Made by a program: the position numbers and the translations under genes. Positions 21,834-50,991 of a stretch of DNA of 64,000 nucleotides are shown here, one piece after another. The stretch comes from Burkholderiales bacterium (GTDB taxonomy: Bacteria; Pseudomonadota; Gammaproteobacteria; Burkholderiales; SG8-39). Each line of letters opens with the position of its first letter. Within the stretch, counting starts at the first letter, position 1. The stretch lies in assembly GCA_050741015.1 (NCBI GenBank), contig JBOIFE010000116.1, forward strand, positions 108-64,107, written 5' to 3'. The notes below the pieces were generated by a model that saw only the letters and a program-made list of their open reading frames with translations, ran no database searches and was not told where the DNA came from.

Positions 21834-21834
21834 G

Positions 21835-26183: not shown

Positions 26184-26190
26184 GGGCCGA

Positions 26191-27963: not shown

Positions 27964-27986
27964 AGGGGGATTGTACTGGCCGAAAC

Positions 27987-29189: not shown

Positions 29190-30568
29190 TACCGGCCTTT
29201 CCCCAGCAGCACCACCCGCAGCGTCTTGAACACGATCCCGATATCGAGCAGCACCGAGTAGTTCTTGATGTAGTAGAGGTCGTATTGCAGCTTCTCGCGC
29301 GCGTCCTCGACCGAGGCGCCGTAGGGGTACATGACCTGCGCCCACCCCGTGATGCCGGGCCGCACCAGGTGGCGCAGGTTGTAGAGCGGGATCTCTTTCT
29401 CGAGCGTGGCGTTGAAGACCGGGCGCTCGGGGCGGGGGCCGATGAAGCTCATCTCGCCCTTCAGCACGTTGACGAGCTGCGGCAGCTCGTCAATGCGGAG
29501 CTGCCGCAGGATCCGTCCCAGGCGCGTCACGCGCGGGTCGGCGCTCTTCGCCCACTGCGGCCCGTCGCGCTCGGCGTCGTGCGCCATCGAGCGGAACTTG
29601 AGGACCTCGAATTCCCGGCCGCCGAGGCCCGTGCGCGCCTGCCGGAAGATGGCCGGGCCGCGGCTCTCCAGCCGGACCAGCACCGCCACGACCGCCATGA
29701 CCGGCAGCGCCGGCACGAGCAGCGCAAACGCGAGCGCGATGTCCGTCAGGCGCTTGATGCGCAGGCCGAGCGGGTTGTGCAGCAGGTCGAAGCCGTGGGC
29801 GAAGACGAGCCAGCCCTGCCGGGTGTGCAGCACCGGCACCTTGAACCACATCTGCTCGTAGAAATCGGTCACGCCGTAGACGCGAACGCCCGAGAAACGC
29901 AGCTGCATGAGCTGCTGCACGAGCGGCTCGGGCGCGGAGTCGGTGAGCGCGACGACGACGCCCGACCAGGGGCCGGCCGCTGCGAGCTTCTCGACTTCGG
30001 CCTCGGCGGCGATGACGAGCTCGCCCTGCGTGTTGGAGCGCTCGAAGTCCTCGCGCAGGCCCAGCGCCTGCTCGCCGGTGCCGATCACGAGCCACCGAAT
30101 GCGCTCGCCCTGCTCGCGCACCCAGCCGCCCAAGTAGAGGCGCCAGCCGGCGCTCCAGAACGCCTGCGCGAGGAACGCGACCGGAAAGATCCCGCGGCCG
30201 AAGGTCGGGTCGACGCTCCAGAAGCCCCCCGCGTAGGCGGCGGCGCCCGTCAGCAGCCCCGCAATCGCCACGGCCAGGACCGCGCGGGCAGGCGGACGCA
30301 TGCCCGAAACCTGGCGGCCCGGCACGAACGTATCGAGCACGTAGAGGCTGAGCACGAGGAAGAAGAGCGGAATGAGCATGCCGGGCGTGAACCACGGGTG
30401 CTCGTCGAGGCGCAGCCAGAAGGCGAGGTCGAAGAACAGGACCAGGCCCATGATGTCCAGCAGCAGCAACGCGACCGCGACGCGCCGCGGCAAGTTGATC
30501 GCCGAAGCGCCCGGCGCCGCGGCGCCGCGGCTCGCGGAGGACTCTCGCTCTTGCCGCGTGGCTGCCAT
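29189..30568 (-). CDS. polyprenyl glycosylphosphotransferase (WbaP/bacterial sugar transferase family)
   Basis: N-terminal TM helices plus the C-terminal catalytic domain KRLTDIALA...FEVLKFRSM...LRIDELPQLVNVLKGEMSFIGPRPERP. Confidence 0.88.
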   Translation of the reverse strand: MAATRQERESSASRGAAAPGASAINLPRRVAVALLLLDIMGLVLFFDLAFWLRLDEHPWFTPGMLIPLFFLVLSLYVLDTFVPGRQVSGMRPPARAVLAVAIAGLLTGAAAYAGGFWSVDPTFGRGIFPVAFLAQAFWSAGWRLYLGGWVREQGERIRWLVIGTGEQALGLREDFERSNTQGELVIAAEAEVEKLAAAGPWSGVVVALTDSAPEPLVQQLMQLRFSGVRVYGVTDFYEQMWFKVPVLHTRQGWLVFAHGFDLLHNPLGLRIKRLTDIALAFALLVPALPVMAVVAVLVRLESRGPAIFRQARTGLGGREFEVLKFRSMAHDAERDGPQWAKSADPRVTRLGRILRQLRIDELPQLVNVLKGEMSFIGPRPERPVFNATLEKEIPLYNLRHLVRPGITGWAQVMYPYGASVEDAREKLQYDLYYIKNYSVLLDIGIVFKTLRVVLLGKGR

Positions 30569-30577
30569 CGCAAACGA

Positions 30578-31702
30578 TTATAGGCGCAGCGACAGATAGG
30601 CCGCGCGCACCTGCTCAGCCATGCGCTGCGCGGTGAATGTTTCCTCGTATCGGCGGCGCGCCTGCGCGCCCATCTTGCGAGCGAGTTCGAGATCCTGCAG
30701 CAACCGGTTCAGCGCGCTTGAGAGCGCTTCCGGCTGCCGGGCCTCGACCGTGAAGCCGCTCACGCCGTCCTCGTTCACCCAGTCGATGCCGGAGCCGGCG
30801 ATGCGCGTCGATACCACCGGCCGGCCCGCGCGCATCGCCTCGATCTGCACGATGCCGAACGCTTCCGACTTCTGCACCGAAGGCAGGCAGAACACGTCGC
30901 AGGCGCGCATGTGGAGCTCGACCTCGCGGTCGGTCAGGCGGCCCAGCAATGAAACTCGGTCATTGACACCGCGATCGTGGATGAGGCGCTCGAGCTCGCC
31001 ACGCAGCGGGCCTTCTCCTCCGATCAGCACTCGCGCCTCCGGAGCGAGCGAGGCTGCGGCGCGCACCAGGTACTCGAACCCCTTGTACGGCACGAGCCGC
31101 CCGAGCGTGAACACGAGCGGGCGCGCGCCGTACTTCGCGCGCGCCGCGGCGATCTCGTCCACGCTGATGGCTTCCTTTGACTCGGCAATACCTATGGGCA
31201 CGGCGCGAGCCTTGCCGCGGAACCCTTCGAGCGCAGCCGATTCGTCGAGCAACTTGGGCGAGGTCGCGATGATCGCGTCCGCGCGCTCGAGCAGCCGGCG
31301 CTCGAGCCATTGGTACGCGCGATAGAGAAGCCGCTGGCGCACGATGTCGCTGTGCCAGTGCAAGACGACGGCACCGTCGAAACTCGAAAGCAACAGGTTC
31401 AGGCTGCTCTGGGGCCACGGGGCGTGCACGTGGATGACGTCGTAGCGCGAGGCAATCGCGCGCCAGGTACGGTAGTCGCCCCAGGACAGCGCGGCAGCAG
31501 ACACAGCGAGCGTGGGTCGCTCCTCGTACACGGTGCCACGCGAGGAAAGCGGATACTGCCGGCGTTCGGGTCCCTGGCACAGGACGTCGACTTCGAGGTC
31601 AGGGTAGCGGGCGAGCTCCGGCACGAGCTCCTCGACCACGCGCTCGATGCCGCCGAGGGTCGTGCGGTAACCCTTGACGTGCTGGAGGATCTTCATCGCC
31701 AT
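30578..31702 (-). CDS. glycosyltransferase family 4 (GT-B)
   Basis: Start at MAMKILQHV, adjacent to the upstream stop. Motifs WHSDIVRQR and PSVQKSEAFGIVQIEAMRAGRPVV. Confidence 0.8.
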   Translation of the reverse strand: MAMKILQHVKGYRTTLGGIERVVEELVPELARYPDLEVDVLCQGPERRQYPLSSRGTVYEERPTLAVSAAALSWGDYRTWRAIASRYDVIHVHAPWPQSSLNLLLSSFDGAVVLHWHSDIVRQRLLYRAYQWLERRLLERADAIIATSPKLLDESAALEGFRGKARAVPIGIAESKEAISVDEIAAARAKYGARPLVFTLGRLVPYKGFEYLVRAAASLAPEARVLIGGEGPLRGELERLIHDRGVNDRVSLLGRLTDREVELHMRACDVFCLPSVQKSEAFGIVQIEAMRAGRPVVSTRIAGSGIDWVNEDGVSGFTVEARQPEALSSALNRLLQDLELARKMGAQARRRYEETFTAQRMAEQVRAAYLSLRL

Positions 31703-31704
31703 CG

Positions 31705-32787
<1,083 letters not shown>

Positions 32788-32850
32788 TGAGGGGACTTCG
32801 CCCGCCGCTTAGAATCCATCGGTGCACGCGCCCAACGCCGACCTCCCCGC

Positions 32851-33798
32851 ATGAAGCTCGGCGTCGTCGTCCTGAATTGGAACGGGAAGGACGTCACGCC
32901 GCGATGTCTGGAGTCCCTCTACCGCGGCACGTGTCCGCCCGATCTTGTCGTCGTCGTCGACAACGCGTCCATCGACGGCTCTGCAGAACTCGTGCGCGAG
33001 CGGTTTCCCCAGGCCGAACTGATACGTAACGATTCTAACCTCGGCTTCGCCGAGGGCTGCAACGTGGGCATCCGCATCCTGCTCCAGCGCGGGTTCGAGC
33101 TCGTCCTGCTGCTCAACAACGACGCGGTCGTGGAATCCGGCTGCCTGGATGAATTGAAACGCGCCGCGCGGGACCAGCTCGCCGCCGCCTATGGCGCGAC
33201 CATCTACGAATTGGGCGAGCCCGCGCGGATCTGGTATGCGGGCGGCACGATAAGCCGACTTACATTGGATGCACGGCACGAGCTGACGCCTCCCGATGCC
33301 GGTGCATCTCCGCGGGCGACGGATTTCATCACTGGCTGCTGCCTCATGATTCGGGCCGAGGCGCTGCGGCGTATCGGGCTGCTCGAGGCGAGCTTCTTCG
33401 CGTACTACGAGGACGTGGACTGGTGTCTTCGCGCCGCGACTGCCGGAGAGCAGCTTCTCTACGTTCCCGGAGCAAAAGTGCAACACGAGGTGTCCTATTC
33501 TTTCCGCAGAAACGAATCTGGCGATGCAAGCGGGTCGCGCTTGCCGTGGGCGCAGAGCCCGCCGCTCGTCCTCTACCTCGGGTACCGCAACCGTCTTCTA
33601 CTGGCCAGACGGCATGCCGGCGGTGCGCTACTGACTTGCTTTGTGATCTGCCGCCGCCTCGCGCGCGCAGCGATCCATTCGTCAGGGCTGCTCCTCGCCG
33701 GTCGGGGAGCGCAGGCGCGAGCCGTGCTCTGCGGCTCCTACGACGGAATCATTCGGCCGGAGTGGCCTGCCGACGTAGAACGCTACATGCGCACGTAG
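32851..33798 (+). CDS. glycosyltransferase family 2 (WbbL/rhamnosyltransferase-like)
   Basis: VVVLNWNGKDVT, VVVDNASIDGS, NLGFAEGCN and LLLNNDAVV. Confidence 0.8.
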   Translation: MKLGVVVLNWNGKDVTPRCLESLYRGTCPPDLVVVVDNASIDGSAELVRERFPQAELIRNDSNLGFAEGCNVGIRILLQRGFELVLLLNNDAVVESGCLDELKRAARDQLAAAYGATIYELGEPARIWYAGGTISRLTLDARHELTPPDAGASPRATDFITGCCLMIRAEALRRIGLLEASFFAYYEDVDWCLRAATAGEQLLYVPGAKVQHEVSYSFRRNESGDASGSRLPWAQSPPLVLYLGYRNRLLLARRHAGGALLTCFVICRRLARAAIHSSGLLLAGRGAQARAVLCGSYDGIIRPEWPADVERYMRT

Positions 33799-33812
33799 GC
33801 AATCGCTACGTC

Positions 33813-34799
33813 CTAGCCGGACATGCGCGTCGCCGCGCACCTTCGCATGCCCCACCAGGCGGCGAGCAGCCATCGGGGCGCGAGCTGCACCAGCAGGAGC
33901 TGAATCGCCCTTGCCTTGCGGCGGGCGCTGGCAAATGCGGTGGCATAGCGGCGCATACCGGTTCTCAAGCGACCCGCAGCGATTTCGGCGGCCCCCAGCT
34001 CGCACTGGTCGTAGCTTGCGCACTCTCGGTTCTTGGCGCGCAGGTCCTCCGTTTGGGCGAGACGCTCGATGCGTTTCCTGACCGCCAGGCGCGTTTCCGC
34101 CATGGTGATGGTACTTCGCGTAAGGCTTTGGCTGTGCTCGCGGATCAGGGTCCTCGTACCGGGCAAGTCCTCGCCGAAAAATCGCTTTCTGGAGAACGCC
34201 CAGCGTAGCCAGAATTCCCAATCCTCGTGTGACCGTAGCGCCTCGTCGAAGTACCCGGTTTCGACCAGCACGGCACGACGGAACAGCGCCGCAGAAACTG
34301 GAAACTGATTCCCCTCGACCATGGCTGCGAGCATGGCTTCGTCGGATGCGCGCCACATTTTCATCCACTCGACGGCACTTGAGTTTCGACCAGGCGCGAG
34401 CACCCTGGCACCCGCATGCAATTGAAAGTAGCGCATGCCCCCGTAGACCAGCGCACAGTCCCGATGCCGGTCGAGAAGCGCCACCTGTTGCTCGAGCTTT
34501 CGTTCTTCTAGCAAATCATCGGCGTCCAACAGCTGGATATAGTCGCCCCGCGCACCGCGCATCCCGGCGTTCCTCGCGGCGCTGAGGCCCCGATTCTCCT
34601 GGCGCACGCAGGCGTATCTTTCGTCCTTGCCGGCGTAGGCGTGGGCGACCGCGCTCGTGTCATCCGTCGACCCGTCGTCAATCACGATACATTCCCAGTT
34701 CTGGAACGTTTGCGCGCGTACTGAATCCAGGCACTCGGCAAGAAAGTGGCCGTAGTTGAAGCACGGAACGACGACGCTGACCCTCGGGGCCGGAATCAT
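33813..34799 (-). CDS. glycosyltransferase family 2
   Basis: ATGA overlap start. Motifs VSVVVPCFNYGHFL, IVIDDGSTDDT and LLDADD. Confidence 0.8.
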   Translation of the reverse strand: MIPAPRVSVVVPCFNYGHFLAECLDSVRAQTFQNWECIVIDDGSTDDTSAVAHAYAGKDERYACVRQENRGLSAARNAGMRGARGDYIQLLDADDLLEERKLEQQVALLDRHRDCALVYGGMRYFQLHAGARVLAPGRNSSAVEWMKMWRASDEAMLAAMVEGNQFPVSAALFRRAVLVETGYFDEALRSHEDWEFWLRWAFSRKRFFGEDLPGTRTLIREHSQSLTRSTITMAETRLAVRKRIERLAQTEDLRAKNRECASYDQCELGAAEIAAGRLRTGMRRYATAFASARRKARAIQLLLVQLAPRWLLAAWWGMRRCAATRMSG

Positions 34800-35809
34800 C
34801 GGGTGCCCAAAGCCGCGCCCGCCCGGACGATCAGCATGCCGAGCCGGTTCTTGAGCGGCAACGAGCGCGTCAACGGAGATGTGTAGAACGCGCTCAGGAT
34901 TCCGCTCTGGGCCGATCGCGCTGAACAATAGCGCCACCACAGGATGGCGATCGCGCGCCGAAACGCCGACGGAGGAAAGCCCGCGGACGTCGCCTCGTTC
35001 CTGCGGATGAGGTTGCCCAGCCAGGCTTCGACGTAACCGACCTCCGGCGCCTCCGCCTTGCGATTGCGGACGATCGCCGCGTGGGCCTCGCACTCAGACT
35101 CCGTCGCGTCCGGATGGATTCTGCGCAGCTGACGCAGGACAATCTTCTTCACGCTCTCTGCCTGAACCCTCTCATGCCGGGCGCTAACTTGACCACCGTG
35201 CTGTCGATATAGCAGCAGGACTTCCGGCACGTTCGCAAGCTTCGTAACCTGGGCGACTCGCGTCCACAGCTCGAAATCCTCGGCATGCGGGAACTCGGCG
35301 TCGTAGCGTAGCCCGTGATTCGCGAAGAACGTCCGGCGGAACATCACCGAGGGATGCGCGAGCGGAGACTCGTAGAAGAGCTTTGCTGCGAGATCTTCCG
35401 GGCGGACCAGCGACCGCACCACCCCGGCTGCCGCGCCATCGAGCATTCGGAACCACGTGCCGCACAGTCCGATTCGCGGCGAGCCCACAAGTAGTTCTCG
35501 TTGCCTCTCCAGGCGCCTCGGCAACGCGGTGTCATCCGCGTCCATGCGCGCGACATACTCGCCCCTTGCCTCCTCCAGCCCCCTGTTGAGCGAGGCGATC
35601 AAGCCGAGATTTCGATCATTTCGCAGTACCCGCAATCGCGGATCCGGGCAGGCGCGAAGCATCTCGGGGCTCGCATCGGTCGACCCGTCATCGACAACGA
35701 GGAGCTCGAAGTCCTCGAAGCTCTGGGCGCGGATGCTCGCTATTGCCTCACCGAGATGTTCTGCGCCGTTGTAGACGGGCATCAGGACGCTAACCGCGGG
35801 AGCCTTCAT
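34796..35809 (-). CDS. glycosyltransferase family 2
   Basis: VSVLMPVYNGAEHL, LVVDDGSTDAS, ARMDADD and EDFELWTR. Paralogue of 38772..39782. Confidence 0.8.
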   Translation of the reverse strand: MKAPAVSVLMPVYNGAEHLGEAIASIRAQSFEDFELLVVDDGSTDASPEMLRACPDPRLRVLRNDRNLGLIASLNRGLEEARGEYVARMDADDTALPRRLERQRELLVGSPRIGLCGTWFRMLDGAAAGVVRSLVRPEDLAAKLFYESPLAHPSVMFRRTFFANHGLRYDAEFPHAEDFELWTRVAQVTKLANVPEVLLLYRQHGGQVSARHERVQAESVKKIVLRQLRRIHPDATESECEAHAAIVRNRKAEAPEVGYVEAWLGNLIRRNEATSAGFPPSAFRRAIAILWWRYCSARSAQSGILSAFYTSPLTRSLPLKNRLGMLIVRAGAALGTR

Positions 35810-35830
35810 GGCCTGATTGCCGCCGGTACG

Positions 35831-36547
35831 TCAGGACGCTCGAGGGTAGAGAAGCGTCATCCCCGGCAGCCCGAGGCCCGAGTCGATCCTCCTGTAGTGG
35901 CCGGGGTTCACCCGCAGGACTTCTTCGATCGCCCGATGCGGGCCCACGTTGTAGCCCGATTCCTTCGGCTGGAAGAACGTGTCGTGCAGCAGGACGCTTG
36001 CGCCCGGAATTTCGGCGGTGACGGCGGAGAGTTCCCTGTGGACCGAGTCGTAGGCGTGGTCGCCGTCGATGAAGAAGACCGGTGCCAGGGCCCGTCCGCT
36101 CGACCTCCAGACAGACAGTGAAACCTCAATGCCATCACCCTGGTGCAGGTGGATCCCAGCCAGCCCGCGCACCAGCCTCCCACGGATGTCCCCGGGATGC
36201 TCGACGTGCTGCGCCTCGTCGGGCAGATCCACGGAATGGATCTGCAGCGGAACGGCATAGTGCTTCGCGCACTCATAGAAAACGCGCGCCGACTTGCCGA
36301 CATGCGTCCCCCATTCGAATATCTGCGTTGGCTTGAGCCGGCATACTGTCGCGCACATGAGCATCAGCTCGTGCAGCGGAAACGGCTCCACGCCCACGAC
36401 TGGGATCAGCCTGGCGAGTACGAAGCGCGACAGCGACCAGTTGTCGACTTCGAACTCCGAGCATCCGGAGTTCTTCGCCGGATTGGTCGTGCTAAGCCGC
36501 GGCTTCCGGCCGGCGAGCCGCAACAGGGCGCTTATCTGCTCCCGCAT
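35831..36547 (-). CDS. class I SAM-dependent methyltransferase (CmcI/Methyltransf_24-like)
   Basis: IFEWGTHVGKSARVF and VFFIDGDHAYDSV. Starting at MREQIS would overlap the upstream GT by 56 nt, so the start is uncertain. Confidence 0.55.
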   Translation of the reverse strand: MREQISALLRLAGRKPRLSTTNPAKNSGCSEFEVDNWSLSRFVLARLIPVVGVEPFPLHELMLMCATVCRLKPTQIFEWGTHVGKSARVFYECAKHYAVPLQIHSVDLPDEAQHVEHPGDIRGRLVRGLAGIHLHQGDGIEVSLSVWRSSGRALAPVFFIDGDHAYDSVHRELSAVTAEIPGASVLLHDTFFQPKESGYNVGPHRAIEEVLRVNPGHYRRIDSGLGLPGMTLLYPRAS

Positions 36548-37814
36548 CCCGAGATTTCTCCGCAATGACGCGCTCGAAGAGCGCTTCGTAATGGTCAGCG
36601 ATTTTCGCCCAAGTGTACCGTTCGAGCCAGCTTGCACGTCCCGCTTTGCCCATGCAGTTCAACCTCTCGGGATCCGAGACAAGCGCCTCGATTTGCGCGG
36701 CAAGCTCGCGGGGCTCGACTCGCGTGTACCCGCGGGCGTCGCGCGGCGCAGGGCAGATCTCTCCTGCTCCCGTCCAGCGCGCGATTTCCTCTGAATTACC
36801 CACGGGCACAGACAGGAACGGCAGTCCTGCGGCCGCAGACTCAAAGAGCACGAGGGGTGAGTACTCGATGTTGGAAGCGAAGACGAAAAGGTCGCTGTTG
36901 AGGTAGGCCTGCACGAGCTCGGAGCGTGAGAGATCGACGAGCAGTGCGCACTTGGCCGATTCCGAGCGGTTGATGCGCGCGACGATGTCCTCCAAGCGCG
37001 GGGCGATCGAGGCGCCGAGGGCCTTGAGAAGGCCCCCAAGGCCGGCGCGTAGAAGGATGGGCTTTAGAAGCCCGACCAGCCTAGCGCGCATTCCGGCGCT
37101 GACCGTTGGATTGTTGCCATTGAGAATCAGCACCGCTTGCCGACCATTCCGCAAGCGCGCAACGTCAAAGGCCTCCGCGAGTTCGCGATGCCCCTTCAGT
37201 CCGGTCAGGCTGCCCACGGTCAGGACAACAAAGGCGTTCGCCGAAATCCCGTGCCTGCGCCTGAAGTCGGGATCACGCGCGATCATGAACTCGCGTTCGC
37301 TCGCACCGTTCGGGACAATGCTAAGGGCTGACAGCCCGTGCTCGCGCGCAAGGTTGATGTCGCGATAGGCAGACGCGTAGAAGATCAGGTGGTCGAACTT
37401 GCGCATCAGATCCGGCATGCGCCGGTAGTAGTCCGAGTATGCGGGCTCATAGAGTCCCGAAAATCCGCACGGGACAAAGATTTTCGGTTTCTTTATCTGA
37501 TCGAGGACGGGGATTAGCGCATCAAACGTCCATTGCTGGGCGGCCTTCACCATGAACACGTCATAGTCGCCCTGGAGCACGAGCCGGCGGTAAGCGTCCG
37601 TTTCGCCACTAATTCCGCGGGCGAGATTTCCCGAGACCGCAAATTCGATGATGTCTACGCCGTCAATTCTTTGGCTAGAACGCTCCGGGAGGCGGGAGGT
37701 CGCCACCGTGACCTGGTGGCTGCGCTCGGCCAACCGCCCCGCGACCTGTCGCACAACTTCCTGCACACCACCCACCGAAGGGGCGTAGAGCTCGCATGCG
37801 AAGAGAACACGCAT
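36492..37814 (-). CDS. glycosyltransferase family 4 (GT-B)
   Basis: MRVLFACELYAPSVGGVQEV and NIEYSPLVLFESAAAGLPFLS (EX7E-like). Confidence 0.75.
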   Translation of the reverse strand: MRVLFACELYAPSVGGVQEVVRQVAGRLAERSHQVTVATSRLPERSSQRIDGVDIIEFAVSGNLARGISGETDAYRRLVLQGDYDVFMVKAAQQWTFDALIPVLDQIKKPKIFVPCGFSGLYEPAYSDYYRRMPDLMRKFDHLIFYASAYRDINLAREHGLSALSIVPNGASEREFMIARDPDFRRRHGISANAFVVLTVGSLTGLKGHRELAEAFDVARLRNGRQAVLILNGNNPTVSAGMRARLVGLLKPILLRAGLGGLLKALGASIAPRLEDIVARINRSESAKCALLVDLSRSELVQAYLNSDLFVFASNIEYSPLVLFESAAAGLPFLSVPVGNSEEIARWTGAGEICPAPRDARGYTRVEPRELAAQIEALVSDPERLNCMGKAGRASWLERYTWAKIADHYEALFERVIAEKSRDAGADKRPVAARRPEAAA

Positions 37815-37817
37815 GGC

Positions 37818-38750
37818 CTATGTCTTGTAGCTCTCCAGCGCTGCTCGCCAGGCACGTTCCAGTCCCGCCTCAAATCCGATTTGCGGTCTCCACCCGGATA
37901 CGCCGCTCAATTTCCCGCTGTCCAGCACGTTTGCCGACACATCGAAGCGGCGCGCCTCCAACCGCTCGGAACGGACCTCGAGGCTGGCGCGCGAGGCGAG
38001 CGGCTCCAGACATCGCAGCACATCCATGTTGCTCCTGCCTACGCCGGTACCAATGTTGTACGCGCTTCCGGAATCGCCCTTCTCGAGCACGGCAATAATC
38101 CCCTTCGCGACATCGGACACGTGCACGTAGTCCCGGATAGTGCCCTCCGTGCCGAACACGCGAACCATCTCGCCGCGAATGATCGAATGCATGGCCGTCG
38201 CGATGAAGCCTTGGCCGGCGAACGGGCGCTGACCTTCTCCAAACGCGTTGCCCGGTCGCGCGATGGCCACGGGCAGGTCGGCGACGTGATGGAACATTCC
38301 TGCGTACTTTTCGATGGTGAGCTTCGTGATGCCGTAGGGCGAGACTGGCATCGTCGGATGGTCCTCGCCAATCGGTAGCGAATGTGCATTGCCGTAAACG
38401 GCTCCGCCTGTGGAGACAAGCACCACTTTGTGCGCCCCCGCCGCCACTGCTTCCTGAAGTAACTGGACGCTCGGCGGGAGGTTCGCAAGGATGTCGTAGA
38501 TCGGATCCGCGAAGCTGGTCTGCGGAACCGTCGCATAGGCAAGATCGACAATCTCATCGACCCCTCGCAGCAGGGTCTTCAGGACGGCCCGATCGCCATA
38601 ATCGCCGCAGACGTAGGTGACCTCTCTGGGCAACGCTACGTCCGGCCGGACCCGGCGACCCAGGATAACGACATCACGCCCCGAATCAGTCAAGTACTGG
38701 GCCAAGCGCGTACCGATGAATCCAGCTCCTCCGATTAAGCAAGTCCGCAT
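37818..38750 (-). CDS. NAD-dependent sugar epimerase/dehydratase (GalE-like SDR)
   Basis: CLIGGAGFIGTRL and the catalytic YGITKLTIE. Confidence 0.75.
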   Translation of the reverse strand: MRTCLIGGAGFIGTRLAQYLTDSGRDVVILGRRVRPDVALPREVTYVCGDYGDRAVLKTLLRGVDEIVDLAYATVPQTSFADPIYDILANLPPSVQLLQEAVAAGAHKVVLVSTGGAVYGNAHSLPIGEDHPTMPVSPYGITKLTIEKYAGMFHHVADLPVAIARPGNAFGEGQRPFAGQGFIATAMHSIIRGEMVRVFGTEGTIRDYVHVSDVAKGIIAVLEKGDSGSAYNIGTGVGRSNMDVLRCLEPLASRASLEVRSERLEARRFDVSANVLDSGKLSGVSGWRPQIGFEAGLERAWRAALESYKT

Positions 38751-38771
38751 GCGATTAGGTTCTTCCCGGAT

Positions 38772-39782
38772 CTAGGACCCTAGCATGAGCCGTCGCGCGC
38801 GCCGGACAATCCTGAAGAGATTGCGGCGCCAACCGTGCCCGTAGATCAACTCCCAATAGCGCGTCCTGAGTCCGGCGACATGCTTTGCAGCTTCCTTTGC
38901 AAAGAACTCGCCGCGGTCACCGGTGACACGCTCAGCGGCGCGCGCGAAAATCGCGCTCATTTCTCCGAAATCCGGCTTGCCGCCAATGCGCTCCGCGGCT
39001 GAATGCTCTAGCGCTGCGATGTTGATGATCTGCGGATTGGACGAGTCGGTGCCTGAGGCCCAAGCGATGTTTTCCGCGCAGATTTTCACGAGGCGACTCA
39101 CGAAGGGCGCTTTCCCGACGCGCGACATGCTGCCCGGGACCTCCCTGTAGATATGCAGGATTTCCGGGATGTTGGCGAGCTGATATCTGCGCGCCACGCG
39201 CGACCACAGCTCGAAATCCTCCGGGGGCTGTCGCTCGACGTCTGTGCTGTAGCCGCCGACGACGCGAAGCGCATCCTTTCGCAGCATTACCGAGCTGTGA
39301 ACAAACGGGTTGTTGAGAAGCAGTCGATACTGCAGAGCTTCGTTGTCTGTAGGATGCCGATGTGACCGACCACTGGGCGTTCGATCGACCCACACATCTG
39401 CCCAGGTCCCCACAAGAGCGCACTGCGGGTTGGCATCGAGGAACGCTGCCTGCCGCCCGAGCCGCGCGGGCTTCGACACGTCATCTTGGTCCTGGCGCGC
39501 GATGTACTTCCCCTTGGCAAGCTCGATGCCGCGATTAAGCGTCGCCGATAAGCCGCGGTTTTCCTGGCTGTAGAACCGCATTCGTGGATCGCTGTATTGC
39601 TGCGCAATCTGCGGCGTACTGTCAGTTGAGCCGTCGTCGATAACGATCAGTTCGAAGTCGCGATAGCCCTGAGCAAGGATGCTGTCGATCGCCTCTCCGA
39701 CATACTCGACGCAATTGAATACCGGGAGAACGACGCTAATGGACGGTTGCACGATCGCATGAGCCCTTAGACTCTGACCCAT
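38772..39782 (-). CDS. glycosyltransferase family 2
   Basis: ISVVLPVFNCVEYV, IVIDDGSTDST, ARQDQDD and EDFELWSR. The start at MGQS overlaps the upstream stop by 16 nt. Confidence 0.8.
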   Translation of the reverse strand: MGQSLRAHAIVQPSISVVLPVFNCVEYVGEAIDSILAQGYRDFELIVIDDGSTDSTPQIAQQYSDPRMRFYSQENRGLSATLNRGIELAKGKYIARQDQDDVSKPARLGRQAAFLDANPQCALVGTWADVWVDRTPSGRSHRHPTDNEALQYRLLLNNPFVHSSVMLRKDALRVVGGYSTDVERQPPEDFELWSRVARRYQLANIPEILHIYREVPGSMSRVGKAPFVSRLVKICAENIAWASGTDSSNPQIINIAALEHSAAERIGGKPDFGEMSAIFARAAERVTGDRGEFFAKEAAKHVAGLRTRYWELIYGHGWRRNLFRIVRRARRLMLGS

Positions 39783-40648
39783 TCGTCCGGGATCAGATCG
39801 ATGGTGCTGTGCGACGCATCTTGAAACCATTTCTGCGGGGCAACTACGACCTTTGTCCGGTTGCTACATAGCCAGGCGCCCCACCAGCTAAACGTGCTAT
39901 TTGCGATGATGTGATGCCGGCATAATGATAGGAGCCGCAAGTCTTCCTCGCCTCTCGTCACGGCATTGTGACGAAGAACGGTAGTCGGAAAGGGAAAACG
40001 CAAATTGGTCTCCGCCCATTCCGGGTCATCGGAGAAGATAAAGATGTGGGGATTCCCAACCCGTTGCCGAACCACGGCTATTGCTCGTTCGTAATACTCC
40101 GGTCCGCACGTGCCATGGTAGCGGCTCGTATGTGCATCGGCGACGTAGTCCCCTCGTCGGACATGCAATGAAACCGAAGTGCAATCCTCTATCATCTCGG
40201 CGAGCTCCAGATTCTTGCCGGCCAAGGGACAGCGGACCTTGAACTCCCCTCGCACTACCTCTTCGATTTCGTTGAAGTATTTTGGACTCTGCCAGTATCC
40301 ATCAAGGTAGATGCCGTCGCCCAATAAGAGAATCTGTGGGTCAAAGTGAAAATGCCTCTCCCGCACGAGCTTCGGCCCGGTCCAGCCAATAGCAGATGCA
40401 CCCTTGCGCAATAGCGTAGCCGTACTGCCCTGACCCAGCAGAAGACTCGCCAAACTGGAATGCCGCCGAAAGCTGACCTCCTTTGGCAGGCGGAAGCGGT
40501 CTAGCCGGAAGCCACCATGTAGTCGATAAGTGCGGAATCCACTGAGATCCAGCTGTAGTGGAACACGAAGTATCGCCGATAGGCGCCTTCCCGCGGCGTA
40601 CTGGAACATCTGATTTCCAAGGCCGCCAAGTACCCGAACAGTAATCAC
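39767..40648 (-). CDS. alpha-1,2-fucosyltransferase (GT11 family)
   Basis: The three GT11 hallmarks are all present: LGGLGNQMFQYAAG, SLHVRRGDY and NSTFSWWGAWL. Confidence 0.85.
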   Translation of the reverse strand: MITVRVLGGLGNQMFQYAAGRRLSAILRVPLQLDLSGFRTYRLHGGFRLDRFRLPKEVSFRRHSSLASLLLGQGSTATLLRKGASAIGWTGPKLVRERHFHFDPQILLLGDGIYLDGYWQSPKYFNEIEEVVRGEFKVRCPLAGKNLELAEMIEDCTSVSLHVRRGDYVADAHTSRYHGTCGPEYYERAIAVVRQRVGNPHIFIFSDDPEWAETNLRFPFPTTVLRHNAVTRGEEDLRLLSLCRHHIIANSTFSWWGAWLCSNRTKVVVAPQKWFQDASHSTIDLIPDEWVRV

Positions 40649-40681
40649 CCGGCGTCTGCTTCGGCAATCCAGCGCATCACG

Positions 40682-41410
40682 CTACGGTTGCCGAGCAACT
40701 CGCCAGTTCTCCCAAATGAATGGGTATTGGTAAGTAAGCGTGTGCGTTAACTGCAGCGCGGCGTGGATCTTCTTCATCCGATTTACCGCGTCCGGTACAA
40801 AATCATGGAACTGTACCTGGATATTATCGATCCTCTTTACGGTGCCTCGAACAATCAGATGCTCCAATAGCTCATACTCCGCGCCCTCAATATTTATCTT
40901 CATTAGATCGACACGTCCAGGAAAGTGTTTATCCAAGAAATCCGCGCCCGCGACTATGTCGATGGATTGAGCTTCACCATTTCGCTCACCTACGAAAGTT
41001 GAAGCGTCACCTGCGATTGTAATTTTCTCATTCCGGTCGCTTCCACCCAGACCAAACGGAAAAACGTGTATCCGATCGTTCGCACGGAATCGTCGCTTGA
41101 TGCTCTCACAGTATGCGTTGACCGGCTCAAAGATATGCACATCACACAAGTGCATTCCGAAAATATCGCTCGCCCACTGCCCTTCAAATCCGCCCACGTC
41201 CAAAACAACGGACTCTCGTCGCAGGTCATAGTCGAGCCTTAGCGTTTTATCACCTCTCACCGCAACCCATTCGCGGTGTGCTTCAACAATCATTTGCTTA
41301 ATGGGGTTAGGTTGCTCCACCGGCTGTGAGCGCCTGATAGAGCTGAGGCCGGGCAGACTTCCGATCCGCCGTCGTATTCGACCAAATAGCGCGCTTGGGT
41401 CAATAGGCAT
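40682..41410 (-). CDS. FkbM-family methyltransferase
   Basis: VLDVGGFEGQW and LMKINIEGAEYELL. Confidence 0.75.
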   Translation of the reverse strand: MPIDPSALFGRIRRRIGSLPGLSSIRRSQPVEQPNPIKQMIVEAHREWVAVRGDKTLRLDYDLRRESVVLDVGGFEGQWASDIFGMHLCDVHIFEPVNAYCESIKRRFRANDRIHVFPFGLGGSDRNEKITIAGDASTFVGERNGEAQSIDIVAGADFLDKHFPGRVDLMKINIEGAEYELLEHLIVRGTVKRIDNIQVQFHDFVPDAVNRMKKIHAALQLTHTLTYQYPFIWENWRVARQP

Positions 41411-41490
41411 GGTGGAGCTGTCGAATGACTACAAGGGGGTCGCTTCTTTCCTCGAGGACGACATCTTTTGGAATCCACCACCTGCGGCGA

Positions 41491-42360
41491 CTAGGTGTTC
41501 TTCCGAAACAACTGCACCGGCATTAGGCGACCTTCGCTGTCGACCCGATCTTGTCGTACTTTGTCCGCGGATCGCGTTCGCCACCATAGATCAACACTGT
41601 CTCTCAACTTGGGGCCACGGAAAGCGGGCACATACACAGGTTGCGCGGTCAAGTAGCAGTTACCGCGGTAGTCGCTTACCAAGTAGGTGAGATGAGCATT
41701 GGGAAACGATGCCTCTAGGTCAAATTCGGGCACCTCGAGTTTGTGAAAGTCGTCCGAGTGAACGAATATGCAGTTCGAGTCCGTCATGCATGCAAGCTTG
41801 TATCCCCTTTCAGCCGCAGCTCGCGTGATCGCCAATCCCGATGAGCCCAAATTACCGCCAGGTGACTGAAATAAGTCCAAGTGAGGCGGTATAGTCGGGT
41901 TGTACTCGACGACCAATACCCTTGGACGGATATTCTTCAGTGAACAGAGGATGTGATAGTCGTCGCCATCAATGTCGATACAAAGCAGATCTAGGTCTCT
42001 TTCCTCGTACCTAGCGCGTTTCACGAGGGAGTCGAGAGAGTCGTTTCCGCTTGGCGCCACAAATGCATTTAATACGGTGACCAAAGAGTTCGTGAGGACC
42101 CTTTGCCGTAACTGGGCACAGCGAGCTGTGTCCCCTTCTATGAGCAGCGCGCTCCACCCTTGGTCGTGCCAAAGTCGATAGGTATTGCTGAGATGCTTTC
42201 CATCCCAGGCTCCAAACTCGATACAGGTCTTTGTGCGCGGGACGATCCGGCGGAAAATTTCCTCGATAATTCCATCCTCGCCAAATTGCGACGTAATGTT
42301 CCTCGCATAGTTCGCGAGGGGTGGGGCACTGCTTCGAGGTTCTATATTCACGGTCATCAT
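41491..42360 (-). CDS. FkbM-like methyltransferase
   Basis: SQFGEDGIIEEIF, CIEFGAWDGKHLSNT, WSALLIEGD, LLCIDIDGDDYHIL and VLVVEYN. Confidence 0.6.
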   Translation of the reverse strand: MMTVNIEPRSSAPPLANYARNITSQFGEDGIIEEIFRRIVPRTKTCIEFGAWDGKHLSNTYRLWHDQGWSALLIEGDTARCAQLRQRVLTNSLVTVLNAFVAPSGNDSLDSLVKRARYEERDLDLLCIDIDGDDYHILCSLKNIRPRVLVVEYNPTIPPHLDLFQSPGGNLGSSGLAITRAAAERGYKLACMTDSNCIFVHSDDFHKLEVPEFDLEASFPNAHLTYLVSDYRGNCYLTAQPVYVPAFRGPKLRDSVDLWWRTRSADKVRQDRVDSEGRLMPVQLFRKNT

Positions 42361-42413
42361 TCAATTTGCTCTTAACTAGGAAATGCTTCAATCAACACTC
42401 AGGAGCCAGCGCG

Positions 42414-43718
42414 TCAACCTACCTCTCGGAAGCCCCGAGACTCGTCCACCCAAGGCAGTACAGGCGCCAACATCGTGGGCCTCTTGTTGATCCAGTACGG
42501 TGAATCGCTGCTTCCGCCTTGCACTTCCATGTAAATTGTCGGGACACGCTGACGCGGCTCGAATAGCCATTCCGAATAGTGCAATCCACCAATCAGTTCC
42601 AGCTGATAGACACCTTCATTCAACAATCGTGGCGGAATTCTGGATCGCACCATATGCGATCCGGGTTCCAGTTTCACCGTTGTGCCATCTCCAGCATCTG
42701 TGTTGTATGACCAGTAAAGGCATGCCCCCTCCTGCGTATATAGCGCATAGCCTATCGTAAGGTTTTCGTTGAATTGCTCCACCTTTCCTTCAATTGTCAC
42801 GTATGCATCTTCGTCGGCTCTCATCGGCATTTGAAGTGGCCTCCCGTTCTCAGATGCAACATAGAAGCGCTTCGGCGAAAAGTATGGATTTTCATACTCC
42901 CCACCGCCATTTTCCCAAATCGAGCTCGCGTGACTAGCATTCATACCTACGTAGCTTCGAATTACCGAATCGACGTCATCCGAGTACAACGCAAGTCTCC
43001 CCTCGGAGATGAGCATCGCGCTCGTGCACAATTGACGGACCGCGCTCATGTTGTGGCTGACAAACAGCACAGTCCGCCCGCTTTGAGCCACTTCCGCCAT
43101 TCGCCCTAAGCACTTCCTCTGGAAAGAAACATCCCCAACCGCCAGCACCTCGTCCACCACAAGAATCTCCGGCTCCAGGTGTGCCGAGACCGCGAATGCT
43201 AGACGGACATACATGCCGCTCGAGTAGCGCTTGACCGGTGTATCTAGGAACCTCTCGATCTCCGCAAAAGACACTATGTCGTCAAACTTGCGTTGGATCT
43301 CGCTTCCACTCATGCCCAGTATCGCGCCATTCAAGAAGATGTTTTCGCGGCCTGTGAGCTCTGGATGAAACCCCGTTCCGACCTCAAGCAGGCTTGAAAC
43401 CCTTCCGCACATAGTTACGCGGCCCGCAGTGGGCGCGGTGATCCGAGAGAGAATCTTAAGAAGCGTGGACTTCCCCGCCCCATTCTTTCCAATGATTCCT
43501 ACGCGCGCTCCCTCTCTCACCTCGAAATTGATATCTTGTAGGGCCCAGAAGGACTCACTGTGTACATTGGATTCGTTCCGACGAAATGGGTTGATCAATC
43601 GCCGGCCAAACCCTCTGGCGGCCGCGCTCAGAGCATCGCGGAGCGTGTTATAGCGATCCGCGTGCTCATGTCGGATCACATAAGACTTTCCTAGCCCTTC
43701 AGCTTTTATCGCTAACAC
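42414..43718 (-). CDS. wzt: O-antigen/teichoic-type ABC exporter ATP-binding protein with C-terminal glycan-binding extension
   Basis: GTG start. Walker A GKNGAGKST, Wzt/TagH-type signature YSSGM, Walker B ILVVDEVLAVGD. About 180 extra C-terminal residues, predicted beta-rich, as in Wzt_C carbohydrate-binding domains. Confidence 0.85.
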   Translation of the reverse strand: MLAIKAEGLGKSYVIRHEHADRYNTLRDALSAAARGFGRRLINPFRRNESNVHSESFWALQDINFEVREGARVGIIGKNGAGKSTLLKILSRITAPTAGRVTMCGRVSSLLEVGTGFHPELTGRENIFLNGAILGMSGSEIQRKFDDIVSFAEIERFLDTPVKRYSSGMYVRLAFAVSAHLEPEILVVDEVLAVGDVSFQRKCLGRMAEVAQSGRTVLFVSHNMSAVRQLCTSAMLISEGRLALYSDDVDSVIRSYVGMNASHASSIWENGGGEYENPYFSPKRFYVASENGRPLQMPMRADEDAYVTIEGKVEQFNENLTIGYALYTQEGACLYWSYNTDAGDGTTVKLEPGSHMVRSRIPPRLLNEGVYQLELIGGLHYSEWLFEPRQRVPTIYMEVQGGSSDSPYWINKRPTMLAPVLPWVDESRGFREVG

Positions 43719-43727
43719 CGTGTCCTA

Positions 43728-44555
43728 CTAAATTACGTCGGCAAAGGTACGTTCGACGCGCCGAAAATATGCCATACCACTAATCAGTAGTAACGCGACC
43801 AGCACCATCGATAGAACGAAGCCTGGCCAGTAGAGTTGTGTACGCCCCGCTAAGAGAGACCAGCGGAAGCCGTCGATTACCCCGACCATGGGATTCAACG
43901 AGTAAACAAGTCGCCATCTTTCGGGGACTACCGAACTGCTGAAGCCTACGGGGGAGATAAACAGGCCCAACTGCAATATGAACGGAATGAGGTACCTGAA
44001 ATCGCGATACTTGACGTTTAACGCCGCCATCCACAATCCCGTGCCAAGGGCCGCGCTGGCGCCCGCAATGACGAACAACGGTAGTGCGAGCGCGCGCCAG
44101 TCTGGGAGCAGTTGATACCAGACCATCAATCCCATGAGGATTAGCAACGAAACGAGGAAGTCGGCAAACGCAACGACCACTGTGCTTGCAGGTATCAGCA
44201 GACGAGGAAAATACGTCTTTGAGATTAGGCTTGCGTTCCCGATCAAACTATTCGCGACCTCCGAGAATGCGCTTGAGAAAAATTGCCAAGGTAGCATGGC
44301 AGCGGACACGAGAATTGGATACGGGACGCCGTCTGAGGGAAGGCCGGCCAGACGACCAAAGACAACGGTAAAGACTACGATGGTCAGAAGCGGCTTTATG
44401 AGCGCCCACAACACCCCGATCGCGGTCTGCTTGTAGCGAACCAATATGTCGCGCCACGCAAGGAAATAGAACAACTGCCGGTACCGCCAAAGGTCGCGCC
44501 AATAGTGGCGTTCGGCTCGGCCAGCCTCGATGACTAATGTCGGCTTGGTTTCCAT
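43728..44555 (-). CDS. wzm: ABC-2-type polysaccharide exporter permease
   Basis: 275 aa with six hydrophobic segments. N-terminus YWRDLWRYRQLFYFLAWRDILVRYKQTAIGVLWA, typical of Wzm/TagG. Confidence 0.85.
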   Translation of the reverse strand: METKPTLVIEAGRAERHYWRDLWRYRQLFYFLAWRDILVRYKQTAIGVLWALIKPLLTIVVFTVVFGRLAGLPSDGVPYPILVSAAMLPWQFFSSAFSEVANSLIGNASLISKTYFPRLLIPASTVVVAFADFLVSLLILMGLMVWYQLLPDWRALALPLFVIAGASAALGTGLWMAALNVKYRDFRYLIPFILQLGLFISPVGFSSSVVPERWRLVYSLNPMVGVIDGFRWSLLAGRTQLYWPGFVLSMVLVALLLISGMAYFRRVERTFADVI

Positions 44556-44565
44556 GAACGAACAG

Positions 44566-45591: not shown

Positions 45592-45625
45592 GAGTCCGTG
45601 ATTGTATGGGAAACTTGCGACGCCG

Positions 45626-50984: not shown

Positions 50985-50991
50985 GCTCTCA

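Follow-up and report, generated by a model that had tools for sequence, protein, structure and literature searches.

How does an ABC-transporter-dependent O-polysaccharide cluster decide that a chain is complete and may leave the cell, when no coiled-coil ruler is encoded in it? To our knowledge, all cap-dependent O-antigen exporters that have been resolved biochemically (those of E. coli O8/O9a and O101, and of K. pneumoniae O3, O4, O5, O7 and O12) use a terminator with such a ruler. [quoted passage not shown] Recognition of specific caps by the C-terminal carbohydrate-binding domain (CBD) of Wzt is itself established (PMC9445017, PMC11231755). The locus discussed here lies in a window of 64,000 nucleotides, by which the whole stretch of DNA analysed is meant, and the source organism is an uncultured Burkholderiales MAG. 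At its center are five co-directional, tightly spaced genes, wzm-wzt-ORF289-FkbM242-GT11, the last of them encoding the glycosyltransferase:

43728..44555, minus strand: wzm, ABC-2 permease of the O-polysaccharide exporter, 275 aa (Pfam ABC2_membrane, 67 bits; GC 0.54)
42414-43718, minus strand: wzt, 434 aa, GTG start, beginning 9 bp after wzm
42936..43718, minus strand: nucleotide-binding domain of Wzt, aa 1 to ~261 (Pfam ABC_tran at aa 60-191, 76.9 bits)
42414..42935, minus strand: predicted C-terminal CBD of Wzt, aa ~262-434 (AF2 model and Foldseek)
41491..42360, minus strand: ORF289, divergent FkbM-like putative SAM methyltransferase, 289 aa (weak PF05050 match, motifs, hhalign)
40682..41410, minus strand: FkbM242, FkbM-family SAM methyltransferase, 242 aa (PF05050 and TIGR01444)
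39767..40648, minus strand: GT11-family glycosyltransferase (alpha-1,2-fucosyltransferase family), candidate capping transferase (PF01531, 111.7 bits)

Calling the genes of this contig independently gave Wzt, ORF289 and FkbM242 again. The GC content of the block, 0.51-0.55, stands apart from the 0.60-0.70 of the neighboring genes, and the same step is seen in a related locus (L082). A scan for promoters and terminators across 39-46.6 kb returned fewer matches than shuffled sequence, none of them between genes of the block, and matches to the ops/JUMPstart element (GGCGGTAGnnTG) were at chance level.

The first-pass annotation described a 434-aa Wzt with an extra domain following its nucleotide-binding domain. 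Its coordinates are confirmed, the boundary falls at ~aa 261, up to which the protein aligns with Wzt structures consisting of the nucleotide-binding domain only, and the extension measures ~175 aa. Among solved structures, the best sequence match is Wzt from A. aeolicus (8dku/7k2t, E 4e-61), followed by TagH/TarH. With its domain closest to Wzt/TagH and the ABC-2 permease gene wzm adjoining, the protein belongs to the Wzt family, and Foldseek with the full-length model likewise returns A. aeolicus Wzt as the best match (E 1e-33 to 1e-34, 416-431 columns).

The extension is predicted to be all-beta, with pLDDT 85-95 over the last ~175 aa of Wzt, and the AF2 model of the isolated domain (pLDDT 84, pTM 0.82) has 9-10 strands, in agreement with the beta-sandwich expected beforehand. 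The best Foldseek matches of this model are the three solved Wzt CBDs (2r5o, 8dky/6o14 and 5hno/5hnp), and all of the top 13 are Wzt CBDs, including those of the full-length structures 8dl0, 8dne, 7k2t and 8dku (E 3e-6 to 5e-5). One of these top matches, 8dky, is a Wzt CBD with bound 3-O-methyl-mannose. Against known CBDs the model reaches moderate TM-scores of 0.5-0.6, and generic Ig-like lipid binders come just below. At the level of sequence, the suggested search with the Pfam model Wzt_C (PF14524) stayed under threshold (18.7 bits at aa 285-375, E 0.0018, cut-off 30.4), precomputed matches to it exist for only a few members of the subfamily, and searches of solved structures with the C-terminus, as single sequence and as profile, gave nothing significant and no solved CBD. 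The subfamily counts 155 representatives at E<=1e-30 and has a conserved tail, GG[LS]SDSPYW..KRP..LAPV..W. Over 176 columns of an alignment of 26 homologues (down to 33% identity), 14 positions are invariant and 13 near-invariant, and several tryptophans are among the strongly conserved residues. The C-terminus of Wzt is thus a separate sequence subfamily with the predicted fold of a carbohydrate-binding domain. When plasmids were searched by tblastn with the domain, nothing matched except two distant sequences in Chelatococcus (32% identity), which are set in the context manC-gmd-fcl-wzm-wzt-GT2-FkbM.

Downstream of wzt, both genes that had been called FkbM methyltransferases lie where stated, but only the second passes the family cut-offs. 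FkbM242 scores 39.3 bits with PF05050 (cut-off 22.7) and 50.8 bits with TIGR01444 (cut-off 37.7), and its translation holds the glycine-rich SAM loop LDVGGFEG and a second conserved motif, MKINIEGAEYELL. Orthologues occupy the same position in two other loci (L082 and L085), and a third (L155) has one of 53% identity. The matches of ORF289 are partial and below both cut-offs (18.0 bits against 22.7 with PF05050, 16.4 against 37.7 with TIGR01444). Its motifs comprise an N-terminal SQxGEDG, the glycine loop EFGAWDG and IDIDGDDY, and 23 of the 42 members of its family match PF05050 at E<=1e-3. Alignment of ORF289 with FkbM242 by hhalign superimposes both motifs at E 1.3e-3, with a probability of only 18%, and sequence searches found no solved relative. 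ORF289 can be called FkbM-like at the family level only, and is a putative methyltransferase. Its orthologues directly adjoin wzt in five further loci (L082, L085, L087, L152 and L163).

The last gene of the block, which the first-pass annotation overlooked along with a CmcI-like O-methyltransferase gene further on, belongs to GT11 by a wide margin (111.7 bits with PF01531, cut-off 23.9) and carries the donor-binding motif HxRRxD as HVRRGDY; an alternative start at 40609 would give a protein of 280 aa. A GT11 enzyme would be expected to use GDP-L-fucose as its donor, and the two genes for the synthesis of this sugar nucleotide lie in the same window, 17 kb from the block:

20859-21833, minus strand: fcl (tblastn with Chelatococcus fcl, 56% identity; Pfam)
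~21898-22914, minus strand: gmd (tblastn with Chelatococcus gmd, 72% identity; Pfam)

Both adjoin a second, Wzx-type cluster, which may instead be the user of their product.

The remainder of the O-polysaccharide assembly cluster, assigned by Pfam and by gene calls on the same contig, occupies 29189..39782 on the minus strand, with the exception of one GT2 gene:

38772-39782, minus strand: GT2 (Pfam)
37818-38750, minus strand: SDR epimerase (Pfam)
36492-37814, minus strand: GT4 (Pfam)
35831-36547, minus strand: CmcI/Methyltransf_24-like O-methyltransferase, the third O-methyltransferase of the operon (Pfam)
34796-35809, minus strand: GT2 (Pfam)
33813-34799, minus strand: GT2 (Pfam)
32851-33798, plus strand: GT2 (Pfam)
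31705-32787, minus strand: GT4 (Pfam)
30578-31753, minus strand: GT4 (Pfam)
29189-30568, minus strand: Bac_transf initiating phosphoglycosyl transferase (Pfam)

None of these proteins resembles a WbdD-type terminator, judged by Pfam domains, protein size and runs free of proline and glycine. Pfam detects no kinase domain among the cluster proteins, and there is no candidate for a long coiled coil, since all of them measure at most 460 aa and the longest Pro/Gly-free run is 54 aa. For the proteins of the cluster, the earlier observation that no kinase-methyltransferase with a long coiled coil is encoded is supported on all three counts. An 894-aa ORF at 15625-18309, considered as ruler or terminator, is spurious and arises where the frames of Wzx and a GT4 gene overlap.

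Which genes accompany this type of Wzt domain was assessed by comparing 74 non-redundant loci, found on metagenome contigs with a 7-sequence alignment of the domain, with 81 other wzt loci, taken from genome contigs with a full-length Wzt alignment whose nucleotide-binding-domain motifs retrieve generic Wzt loci. Duplicates were removed by clustering Wzt at 95% identity. The statistics treat loci as independent of phylogeny, and they set metagenome against genome contigs. Counting gene starts between -800 and +300 bp relative to the wzt stop, an FkbM-like gene abuts wzt in 32/60 subfamily loci (53%) and 6/75 others (8%; p 5e-9, uncorrected for phylogeny). Of the subfamily loci, 16/34 (47%) have a GT11 gene at most 5 kb from wzt, as against 2/65 others (3%; p 2e-7, also uncorrected), an enrichment of ~15-fold. 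Either gene is present in 29/34 subfamily loci against 19/65 others. At least one recognized methyltransferase occurs in 32/40 against 17/68, a contrast in which the controls are possibly undercounted, because the families other than FkbM were defined from clusters in the same data. An unbiased clustering of downstream ORFs recovers the same partners, with GT11 and methyltransferases (FkbM with SQxGED, DUF268/Methyltransf_11 and class I) as the enriched groups.

Commonly wzt is followed by one to three methyltransferase genes, these by GT11, and GT11 by the polymer glycosyltransferases. The layout of the block is repeated in L082, whose Wzt is 74% identical, and in L085 the wzt-ORF289-FkbM242 trio stands beside unrelated glycosyltransferases; adjacency of FkbM-like genes to the domain subfamily spans very different glycosyltransferase sets. 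Wzt domains next to the same type of methyltransferase are slightly more alike than those next to different types (52.2% vs 48.7% identity, permutation p 5e-4, uncorrected for phylogeny), a weak tracking. The CmcI-like enzyme, considered as a partner for the Wzt domain, was rejected for its lack of enrichment with the subfamily (4/23 loci vs 3/60 others). Its GT2-epimerase-GT4-CmcI set is found again with other Wzt types (L041, L017 and L029).

Gene content, predicted domain fold, neighborhood statistics and the absence of a ruler are the direct observations behind the reading that we prefer, to which we would give about an even chance: the five genes form an export-and-cap cassette, in which GT11 would provide a terminal 6-deoxyhexose that is methylated by both FkbM-type enzymes and read by Wzt. 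The GT2 and GT4 enzymes encoded downstream would build the polymer on undecaprenyl diphosphate, until GT11 adds a 6-deoxyhexose at the non-reducing end that the polymerising transferases would be unable to extend. This sugar would most likely be L-fucose, drawn from the GDP-L-fucose of gmd and fcl. The two small FkbM-type methyltransferases would then O-methylate the terminal residue, probably at two positions, and binding of the methylated terminus by the C-terminal domain of Wzt would license export, as in A. aeolicus and E. coli O8/O9a. Because there is no coiled-coil ruler, chain length is proposed to follow from kinetic competition between capping and elongating enzymes. The presence of one to three methyltransferase genes between wzt and GT11 would fit multiple methylation of a single residue, and the same grouping leaves without support the earlier division of labor in which one FkbM makes the cap and the other modifies internal residues. 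For internal methylation, the CmcI-like methyltransferase would be a better candidate than either FkbM-type enzyme.

The first-pass annotation proposed a methyl cap read by Wzt. The CBD fold, the missing ruler and the stand-alone methyltransferases linked to the subfamily all favor this, but the cap as a bare methyl fits poorly with GT11 in the partner set. In its strict form, resembling the O8 system, one stand-alone FkbM would methylate the last repeat residue, stopping elongation and producing the signal for Wzt, with GT11 acting as a polymerising or adaptor transferase. We regard this as possible, if rather unlikely. In A. aeolicus and in E. coli O8, the cap is a simple O-methyl group carried by a sugar of the repeat type (PMC9445017), and some half of the subfamily loci combine methyltransferases with the lack of a GT11 gene within 5 kb. 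Moreover, GT11 sits beside the CmcI-like gene inside the polymer module in L155, L083, L017 and L029, the last two of which have a Wzt C-terminus of a different type, and could therefore be a repeat-unit enzyme. Against this stand the enrichment of GT11 near the domain subfamily, usually right after the methyltransferase genes, its place within the low-GC cassette rather than among the polymer genes in the window and in L082, and the difficulty of explaining two or three different methyltransferases by a single methyl. Given that the conserved partners are methyltransferases and GT11, a dedicated, then methylated terminal sugar would be likelier than a methyl placed directly on the final repeat residue.

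It is improbable, in our estimation, that the methyltransferases instead modify internal residues, making the polymer more hydrophobic, and that the Wzt domain reads an unmethylated terminal sugar, another substituent or the backbone. The cluster does contain the CmcI-like O-methyltransferase as well as a C-methyltransferase for sugar precursors, so that the polymer is probably rich in methylated sugars, and some subfamily loci have no recognizable methyltransferase nearby (for instance L084 and L118 from Hyphomicrobium). Nevertheless, it is the FkbM-like genes that specifically adjoin the domain subfamily, across diverse glycosyltransferase sets, and the CmcI-like enzyme, a companion of the polymer module, that shows no enrichment; the weak tracking between domain and methyltransferase type also speaks against internal decoration. 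Very improbable is a merely structural or dimerisation role of the domain, with no gating and with export itself determining length, as modelled for K. pneumoniae O2a, since the sub-threshold Wzt_C score and the empty sequence searches that would favor it are opposed by the best fold match to known cap-binding domains, the strongly conserved residues and the terminal modification required by every characterized Wzt with such a domain (PMC11231755).

The proposed export-and-cap cassette shares several traits with known systems. That of E. coli O8/O9a (equivalent to K. pneumoniae O5/O3, with polymerase WbdA and terminator WbdD) is also ABC-transporter-dependent, with a C-terminal beta-sandwich on Wzt (2r5o, a top fold match) and SAM-dependent methylation implicated in the export signal. 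The caps there are methyl or methyl-phosphate. It differs from the present locus, which has no WbdD-like kinase, coiled-coil ruler, or membrane or polymerase-recruitment region, whose small FkbM-type proteins are not of the WbdD methyltransferase class, whose conserved module includes a GT11 gene, and whose Wzt domain is only ~15% identical and under the Pfam Wzt_C cut-off. In Rhizobium etli CE3, the O-antigen reportedly ends in a 2,3,4-tri-O-methyl-fucose cap and has a discrete length. Wzm/Wzt exports this polymer, its methyltransferases are encoded by several separate genes, and a ruler is not known. A terminal fucose bearing more than one O-methyl group is the chemistry that the module of wzt, one to three methyltransferases and GT11 would predict; the likeness is one of chemistry and serves as a lead.

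WzmWzt of A. aeolicus is the top full-length match in sequence and structure, its domain is among the top fold matches, and its cap is a plain O-methyl sugar, 3-O-methyl-D-mannose or -rhamnose (8dky, 8dku; PMC9445017), for which no capping enzyme is named in that paper. The two domains nevertheless have no HMM-detectable relation, and the present subfamily has its own C-terminal tail motif. In E. coli O101/O162 and K. pneumoniae O4/O7, a Wzt with such a domain likewise couples a terminal O-methyl, methyl-phosphate or Kdo cap to export (PMC13168486, PMC11231755), but the terminator resides in a coiled-coil-ruler protein. The P. aeruginosa CPA cluster (PA5455-PA5459) and the P. syringae TET operon have small stand-alone methyltransferases lacking WbdD interaction domains, in ABC-dependent clusters with a C-terminal domain on Wzt. 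CPA disappears when both methyltransferases are lost in P. aeruginosa, where the glycosyltransferase PA5455 has been proposed as the key length-controlling step (PMC3560663), and a role in transport, elongation and termination has been proposed for the wzm-wzt-GT-O-methyltransferase operon of P. syringae (PMC7820976). On the other hand, the P. aeruginosa enzymes resemble the methyltransferase of WbdD(O8) rather than FkbM (PMC3560663), no GT11 has been reported there, and the polymer is a D-rhamnan. Since stand-alone methyltransferases next to a Wzt with a CBD were the subject of study in the one case and have been proposed in the other, the arrangement is not unprecedented, contrary to the first-pass annotation, which took it to be uncharacterized.

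The practical impact is modest, as these are environmental organisms and the principle of a cap read by the transporter is already established. The locus and the 74 related loci define a concrete module that recurs in metagenomes, consisting of the Wzt domain subfamily, FkbM-type or other methyltransferases and GT11, and offer a sequence signature from which a methylated terminal sugar can be predicted from genomes alone. Somewhat tentatively, this may be a widespread, horizontally mobile and uncharacterized cassette of wzm, subfamily wzt, one to three interchangeable stand-alone methyltransferases and GT11, whose cap would be a mono- to tri-O-methylated fucose-type sugar, with a methylation state predicted by the number of methyltransferase genes, a pattern read by the Wzt domain and a length set without a ruler. 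More generally, the combination of a CBD-bearing Wzt, stand-alone methyltransferases and GT11, recurrent in many uncultured bacteria, probably serves to form a methylated end-cap and to recognize it, with no ruler protein of the usual kind.

In keeping with the first-pass annotation, gene calls, Pfam and structure models agree that the Wzt encoded in the window is a 434-aa protein with an extra C-terminal domain. ABC_tran covers residues 60-191 (Pfam), and the nearest solved relatives by sequence are the A. aeolicus Wzt (E 4e-61) and then TagH/TarH. The Wzt_C match anticipated for the extension is present at residues 285-375, but its 18.7 bits fall under the Pfam cut-off of 30.4, and no solved structure was retrieved by sequence, whether with the C-terminus alone or with a profile built from 26 such sequences. 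The model of the full-length protein (pLDDT 82) is all-beta over residues 267-400 (pLDDT 85-95), and in the PDB it is matched best by full-length A. aeolicus Wzt, which accounts for the top seven hits with 416-431 columns aligned. Modelled alone (pLDDT 84, pTM 0.82), the domain has as its 13 best structural matches solved Wzt carbohydrate-binding domains (E 3e-6 to 5e-5, TM-scores 0.5-0.6, identity 14-16%). These include 2r5o from E. coli O9a, 8dky and 6o14 from A. aeolicus, of which 8dky is bound to 3-O-methyl-mannose, and the Kdo-cap binder 5hno. Since the fold is matched at low sequence similarity, the extension is, as modelled, a module with the carbohydrate-binding-domain fold that has diverged in sequence.

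This domain is kept in 43 full-length Wzt homologues at 52-77% identity, and domain sequences as distant as 33% identity still share 14 invariant positions; W268 and W423 are invariant Trp residues of the domain. When all 1.84 billion cluster representatives were scanned, 155 fell in the subfamily at E<=1e-30 and 417 matched at E<=1e-10; where the listed best matches are full-length proteins, these are ~413-445 aa long and carry the domain at their C-terminus. The most conserved motif of the subfamily is the C-terminal tail GG[LS]SDSPYW..KRP..LAPV..W (residues ~397-434, window 42414-42530), which is modelled with low confidence in the monomer. By analogy with the dimer of the A. aeolicus domain, where one protomer's binding pocket is completed by a C-terminal residue of the other (PMC9445017), the conserved tail may play this part here.

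The genes around wzt are arranged as follows.

Genes of the Wzm/Wzt region (window coordinates, strand where called)
46534-51413, minus: CDP-hexose branch (glucose-1-phosphate cytidylyltransferase, CDP-glucose 4,6-dehydratase, NDP-hexose C-methyltransferase, RmlD-like reductase)
45602-46486, plus: GT2, convergent to the minus-strand operon, flanked by the GalE-like and CDP-sugar genes
43728-44555, minus: wzm, directly upstream of wzt
42414-43718, minus: wzt
41491-42360, minus: ORF289, FkbM-like gene (289 aa)
40682-41410, minus: FkbM242, FkbM gene (242 aa)
39767-40648, minus: GT11, alpha-1,2-fucosyltransferase family gene, directly downstream of FkbM242 (111.7 bits, HVRRGDY motif)
35831-36547: CmcI/Methyltransf_24-like O-methyltransferase, in the operon after GT4
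29189-30568: Bac_transf initiating transferase, at the end of the series downstream of GT11

The calls for wzm, wzt, ORF289 and FkbM242 are the same on a copy of the contig that was assembled independently. An apparent 894-aa ORF was rejected as an artefact of overlapping frames. Beyond GT11 follow a GT2, an SDR epimerase, a GT4, the CmcI-like gene, three GT2 (one on the plus strand), two GT4 and Bac_transf. On the 5' side of the cassette lie a GalE-like epimerase, the convergent GT2 and the CDP-hexose branch, which includes a Zn-ribbon NDP-hexose C-methyltransferase (PF08421 and PF08484) and suggests that the polymer contains a rare sugar, a C-methyl-branched 6-deoxyhexose. Several ORFs of this branch have long N-terminal extensions, which are probably spurious.

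The two genes 3' of wzt had been taken for FkbM methyltransferases, an assignment that stands for one and weakens for the other. FkbM242 scores above the cut-offs (PF05050 39.3 bits, TIGR01444 50.8 bits) and is, by these domain matches, a bona fide FkbM-family enzyme. The matches of ORF289, on the other hand, are both partial and under the cut-off (18.0 and 16.4 bits, respectively). Its family counts 1030 homologues, mostly unnamed proteins, and 23 of 42 sampled members match PF05050. Profile comparison relates ORF289 to FkbM242 (E 1.3e-3), aligning the glycine-rich loop EFGAWDG with DVGGFEG and, at the second FkbM motif, IDIDGDDY with INIEGAEY. ORF289 is treated here as a divergent, FkbM-like putative methyltransferase. 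Some members of its family (P0131, P0132, P0141, P0145 and others) combine two methyltransferase modules, being fused to a Methyltransf_24 domain in proteins of ~505 aa.

The association of these genes with the Wzt subfamily was assessed in 80 metagenome loci, found via two subfamily-specific domain motifs, and five contigs encoding close homologues, against 80 generic wzt loci from reference genomes. Wzt sequences were clustered at 95% identity to eliminate duplicate loci, and every locus was searched in the same way with profiles built from the proteins of the window. In these counts, which ignore phylogeny and compare sets from different collections (metagenome and reference genome), an FkbM-like ORF starts between -800 and +300 bp from the wzt stop in 32/60 subfamily loci versus 6/75 others (Fisher p 5e-9), GT11 lies within 5 kb of wzt in 16/34 versus 2/65 (Fisher p 2e-7), and one or the other is near wzt in 29/34 versus 19/65. 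The CmcI-like methyltransferase showed no enrichment within 8 kb of wzt (4/23 versus 3/60, Fisher p 0.089).

Unbiased all-against-all clustering of the downstream ORFs agrees with the profile-based counts. The enriched families, with the numbers of subfamily and control loci, were GT11 (26 vs 3), a DUF268/Methyltransf_11 methyltransferase (21 vs 3), an FkbM with an N-terminal SQxGED motif (PF05050, 50-64 bits; 19 vs 1), a class I methyltransferase (11 vs 3) and a ~225-aa family that has no Pfam match (8 vs 1). The latter, with the motifs ETGT and LDAHW (L143 10607-11290, L084 11623-12147 and seven other loci), may be another methyltransferase class. The common gene order runs from wzt through one to three methyltransferase genes and GT11 to variable glycosyltransferases: FkbM, DUF268, class I methyltransferase and GT11 in L088, L098 and L100; DUF268 and GT11 in L124 and L162; ORF289, FkbM242 and GT11 in the window and L082. 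In L085 the wzt-ORF289-FkbM242 trio recurs with downstream genes that are unrelated. Other subfamily loci, L084 from Hyphomicrobium among them, show neither partner, and in L155, L083, L017 and L029 GT11 sits inside the polymer module, adjoining the CmcI-like gene.

On a contig of 68-70% GC, the segment from wzm to GT11 forms a trough of 0.51-0.56 GC against 0.57-0.70 in its neighbors, both in the window (39700-44600) and in L082 (1928-6697). Given this trough, and as no terminator-like site was found between the five genes, the block behaves as a cassette; the trough's occurrence in two different genomes suggests that the five genes are transferred horizontally as a unit. The window's GT2-epimerase-GT4-CmcI set recurs at 37-57% identity with a non-subfamily Wzt C-terminus in L041 (Methylobacillus sp. 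MM3) and in L017 and L029 (Bacteroidota), and with a subfamily Wzt in L155, where GT11 is relocated next to CmcI. Since the same polymer genes accompany differing Wzt types, the polymer module and the export/cap module recombine.

The window further holds another polysaccharide cluster, which is of the Wzx type and mostly on the plus strand (1-21000), and a set of genes between the two clusters.

Genes of the Wzx-type cluster and of the intervening segment
4092-6077, minus: WbpM-like
5948-7120, minus: WecA/WbpL-like
7745-9175: manC
9148-10434, minus: GT4
~11.2-12.2 kb: gmd-like gene
12575-13765 and 13762-14997: two DegT aminotransferases
15383-17146: Wzx
17125-18309: GT4
18141-19259: unknown ORF
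19474-20904: further FkbM-domain ORF
20859-29345, minus: intervening segment with fcl, gmd and the four genes below
24301-25392, minus: rmlA
25173-26276, minus: rmlB
26191-27963, minus: MsbA-like ABC exporter
27987-29345, minus: WaaL-type O-antigen ligase

Since the waaL, msbA-like, rml, gmd and fcl genes link the two clusters, the window as a whole is one large LPS locus.

The annotated lack of a WbdD-type protein held up. No cluster protein has a kinase domain, all are <=460 aa, and the longest Pro/Gly-free run is 54 aa; domain content, protein lengths and these runs thus support the absence of a WbdD-type ruler, and the system falls outside the WbdD-type terminators. Coiled coils are found, in contrast, in the resolved K. 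pneumoniae O4 and O7 terminators and the predicted E. coli O101/O162 methyltransferase (PMC11231755, PMC13168486).

In known systems, the carbohydrate-binding domain of Wzt recognizes a modification at the non-reducing terminus, and export is limited to capped chains (PMC11231755); for the A. aeolicus domain the ligand is a plain 3-O-methyl sugar, on whose methyl group a Trp stacks (PMC9445017). From gene anatomy and neighborhood statistics, a methylated cap would be both made and read by the cassette. GT11 would most likely add a terminal 6-deoxyhexose, for which L-fucose is the obvious candidate because gmd and fcl are in the window; both FkbM-type enzymes would methylate this residue, and the Wzt domain would recognize the product. 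A methylated terminus is the favored export signal, with reasonable confidence, whereas the role of GT11 as the capping transferase is put forward tentatively. The cap had originally been envisaged as a methyl group added by a stand-alone FkbM enzyme. The enrichment of FkbM-like genes beside wzt agrees with this, but that of GT11 favors a dedicated methylated sugar over a bare methyl group as the probable cap. The assignment of the second FkbM gene to internal residues found no support: the two FkbM genes probably both serve the cap, and internal methylation is better assigned, as a candidate role, to the CmcI-like enzyme, which is not enriched. Without a ruler, chain length would be governed by how capping competes with elongation. 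The chemistry predicted here is similar to that of the tri-O-methyl-fucose cap that R. etli CE3 reportedly carries. Such Wzt domains and terminators are also said to have been surveyed bioinformatically by Mann, Kimber and Whitfield in 2019, and the cassette may already be described in earlier literature.

The system would follow the same cap-dependent export paradigm as E. coli O8/O9a, K. pneumoniae and A. aeolicus, here on the evidence of genes and models. The closest precedent for the arrangement is the P. aeruginosa CPA, where two small methyltransferases that lack interaction domains are jointly essential and a glycosyltransferase step has been proposed to control length (PMC3560663); the P. 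syringae TET operon provides a further one (PMC7820976). Overall, the feature is real, the original observation stands with corrections, and its interpretation, now refined, is partly supported. A possible experimental entry point is a fucose and FkbM system from a cultured organism, on the 535 kb plasmid pTAD1 of Chelatococcus daeguensis (L167, 420457-438915; manC-gmd-fcl-wzm-wzt-GT2-FkbM-GTs), whose Wzt domain is 32% identical to that of the window. For ruler-less chain termination, the cassette is a defined, recurrent and clonable module to study.
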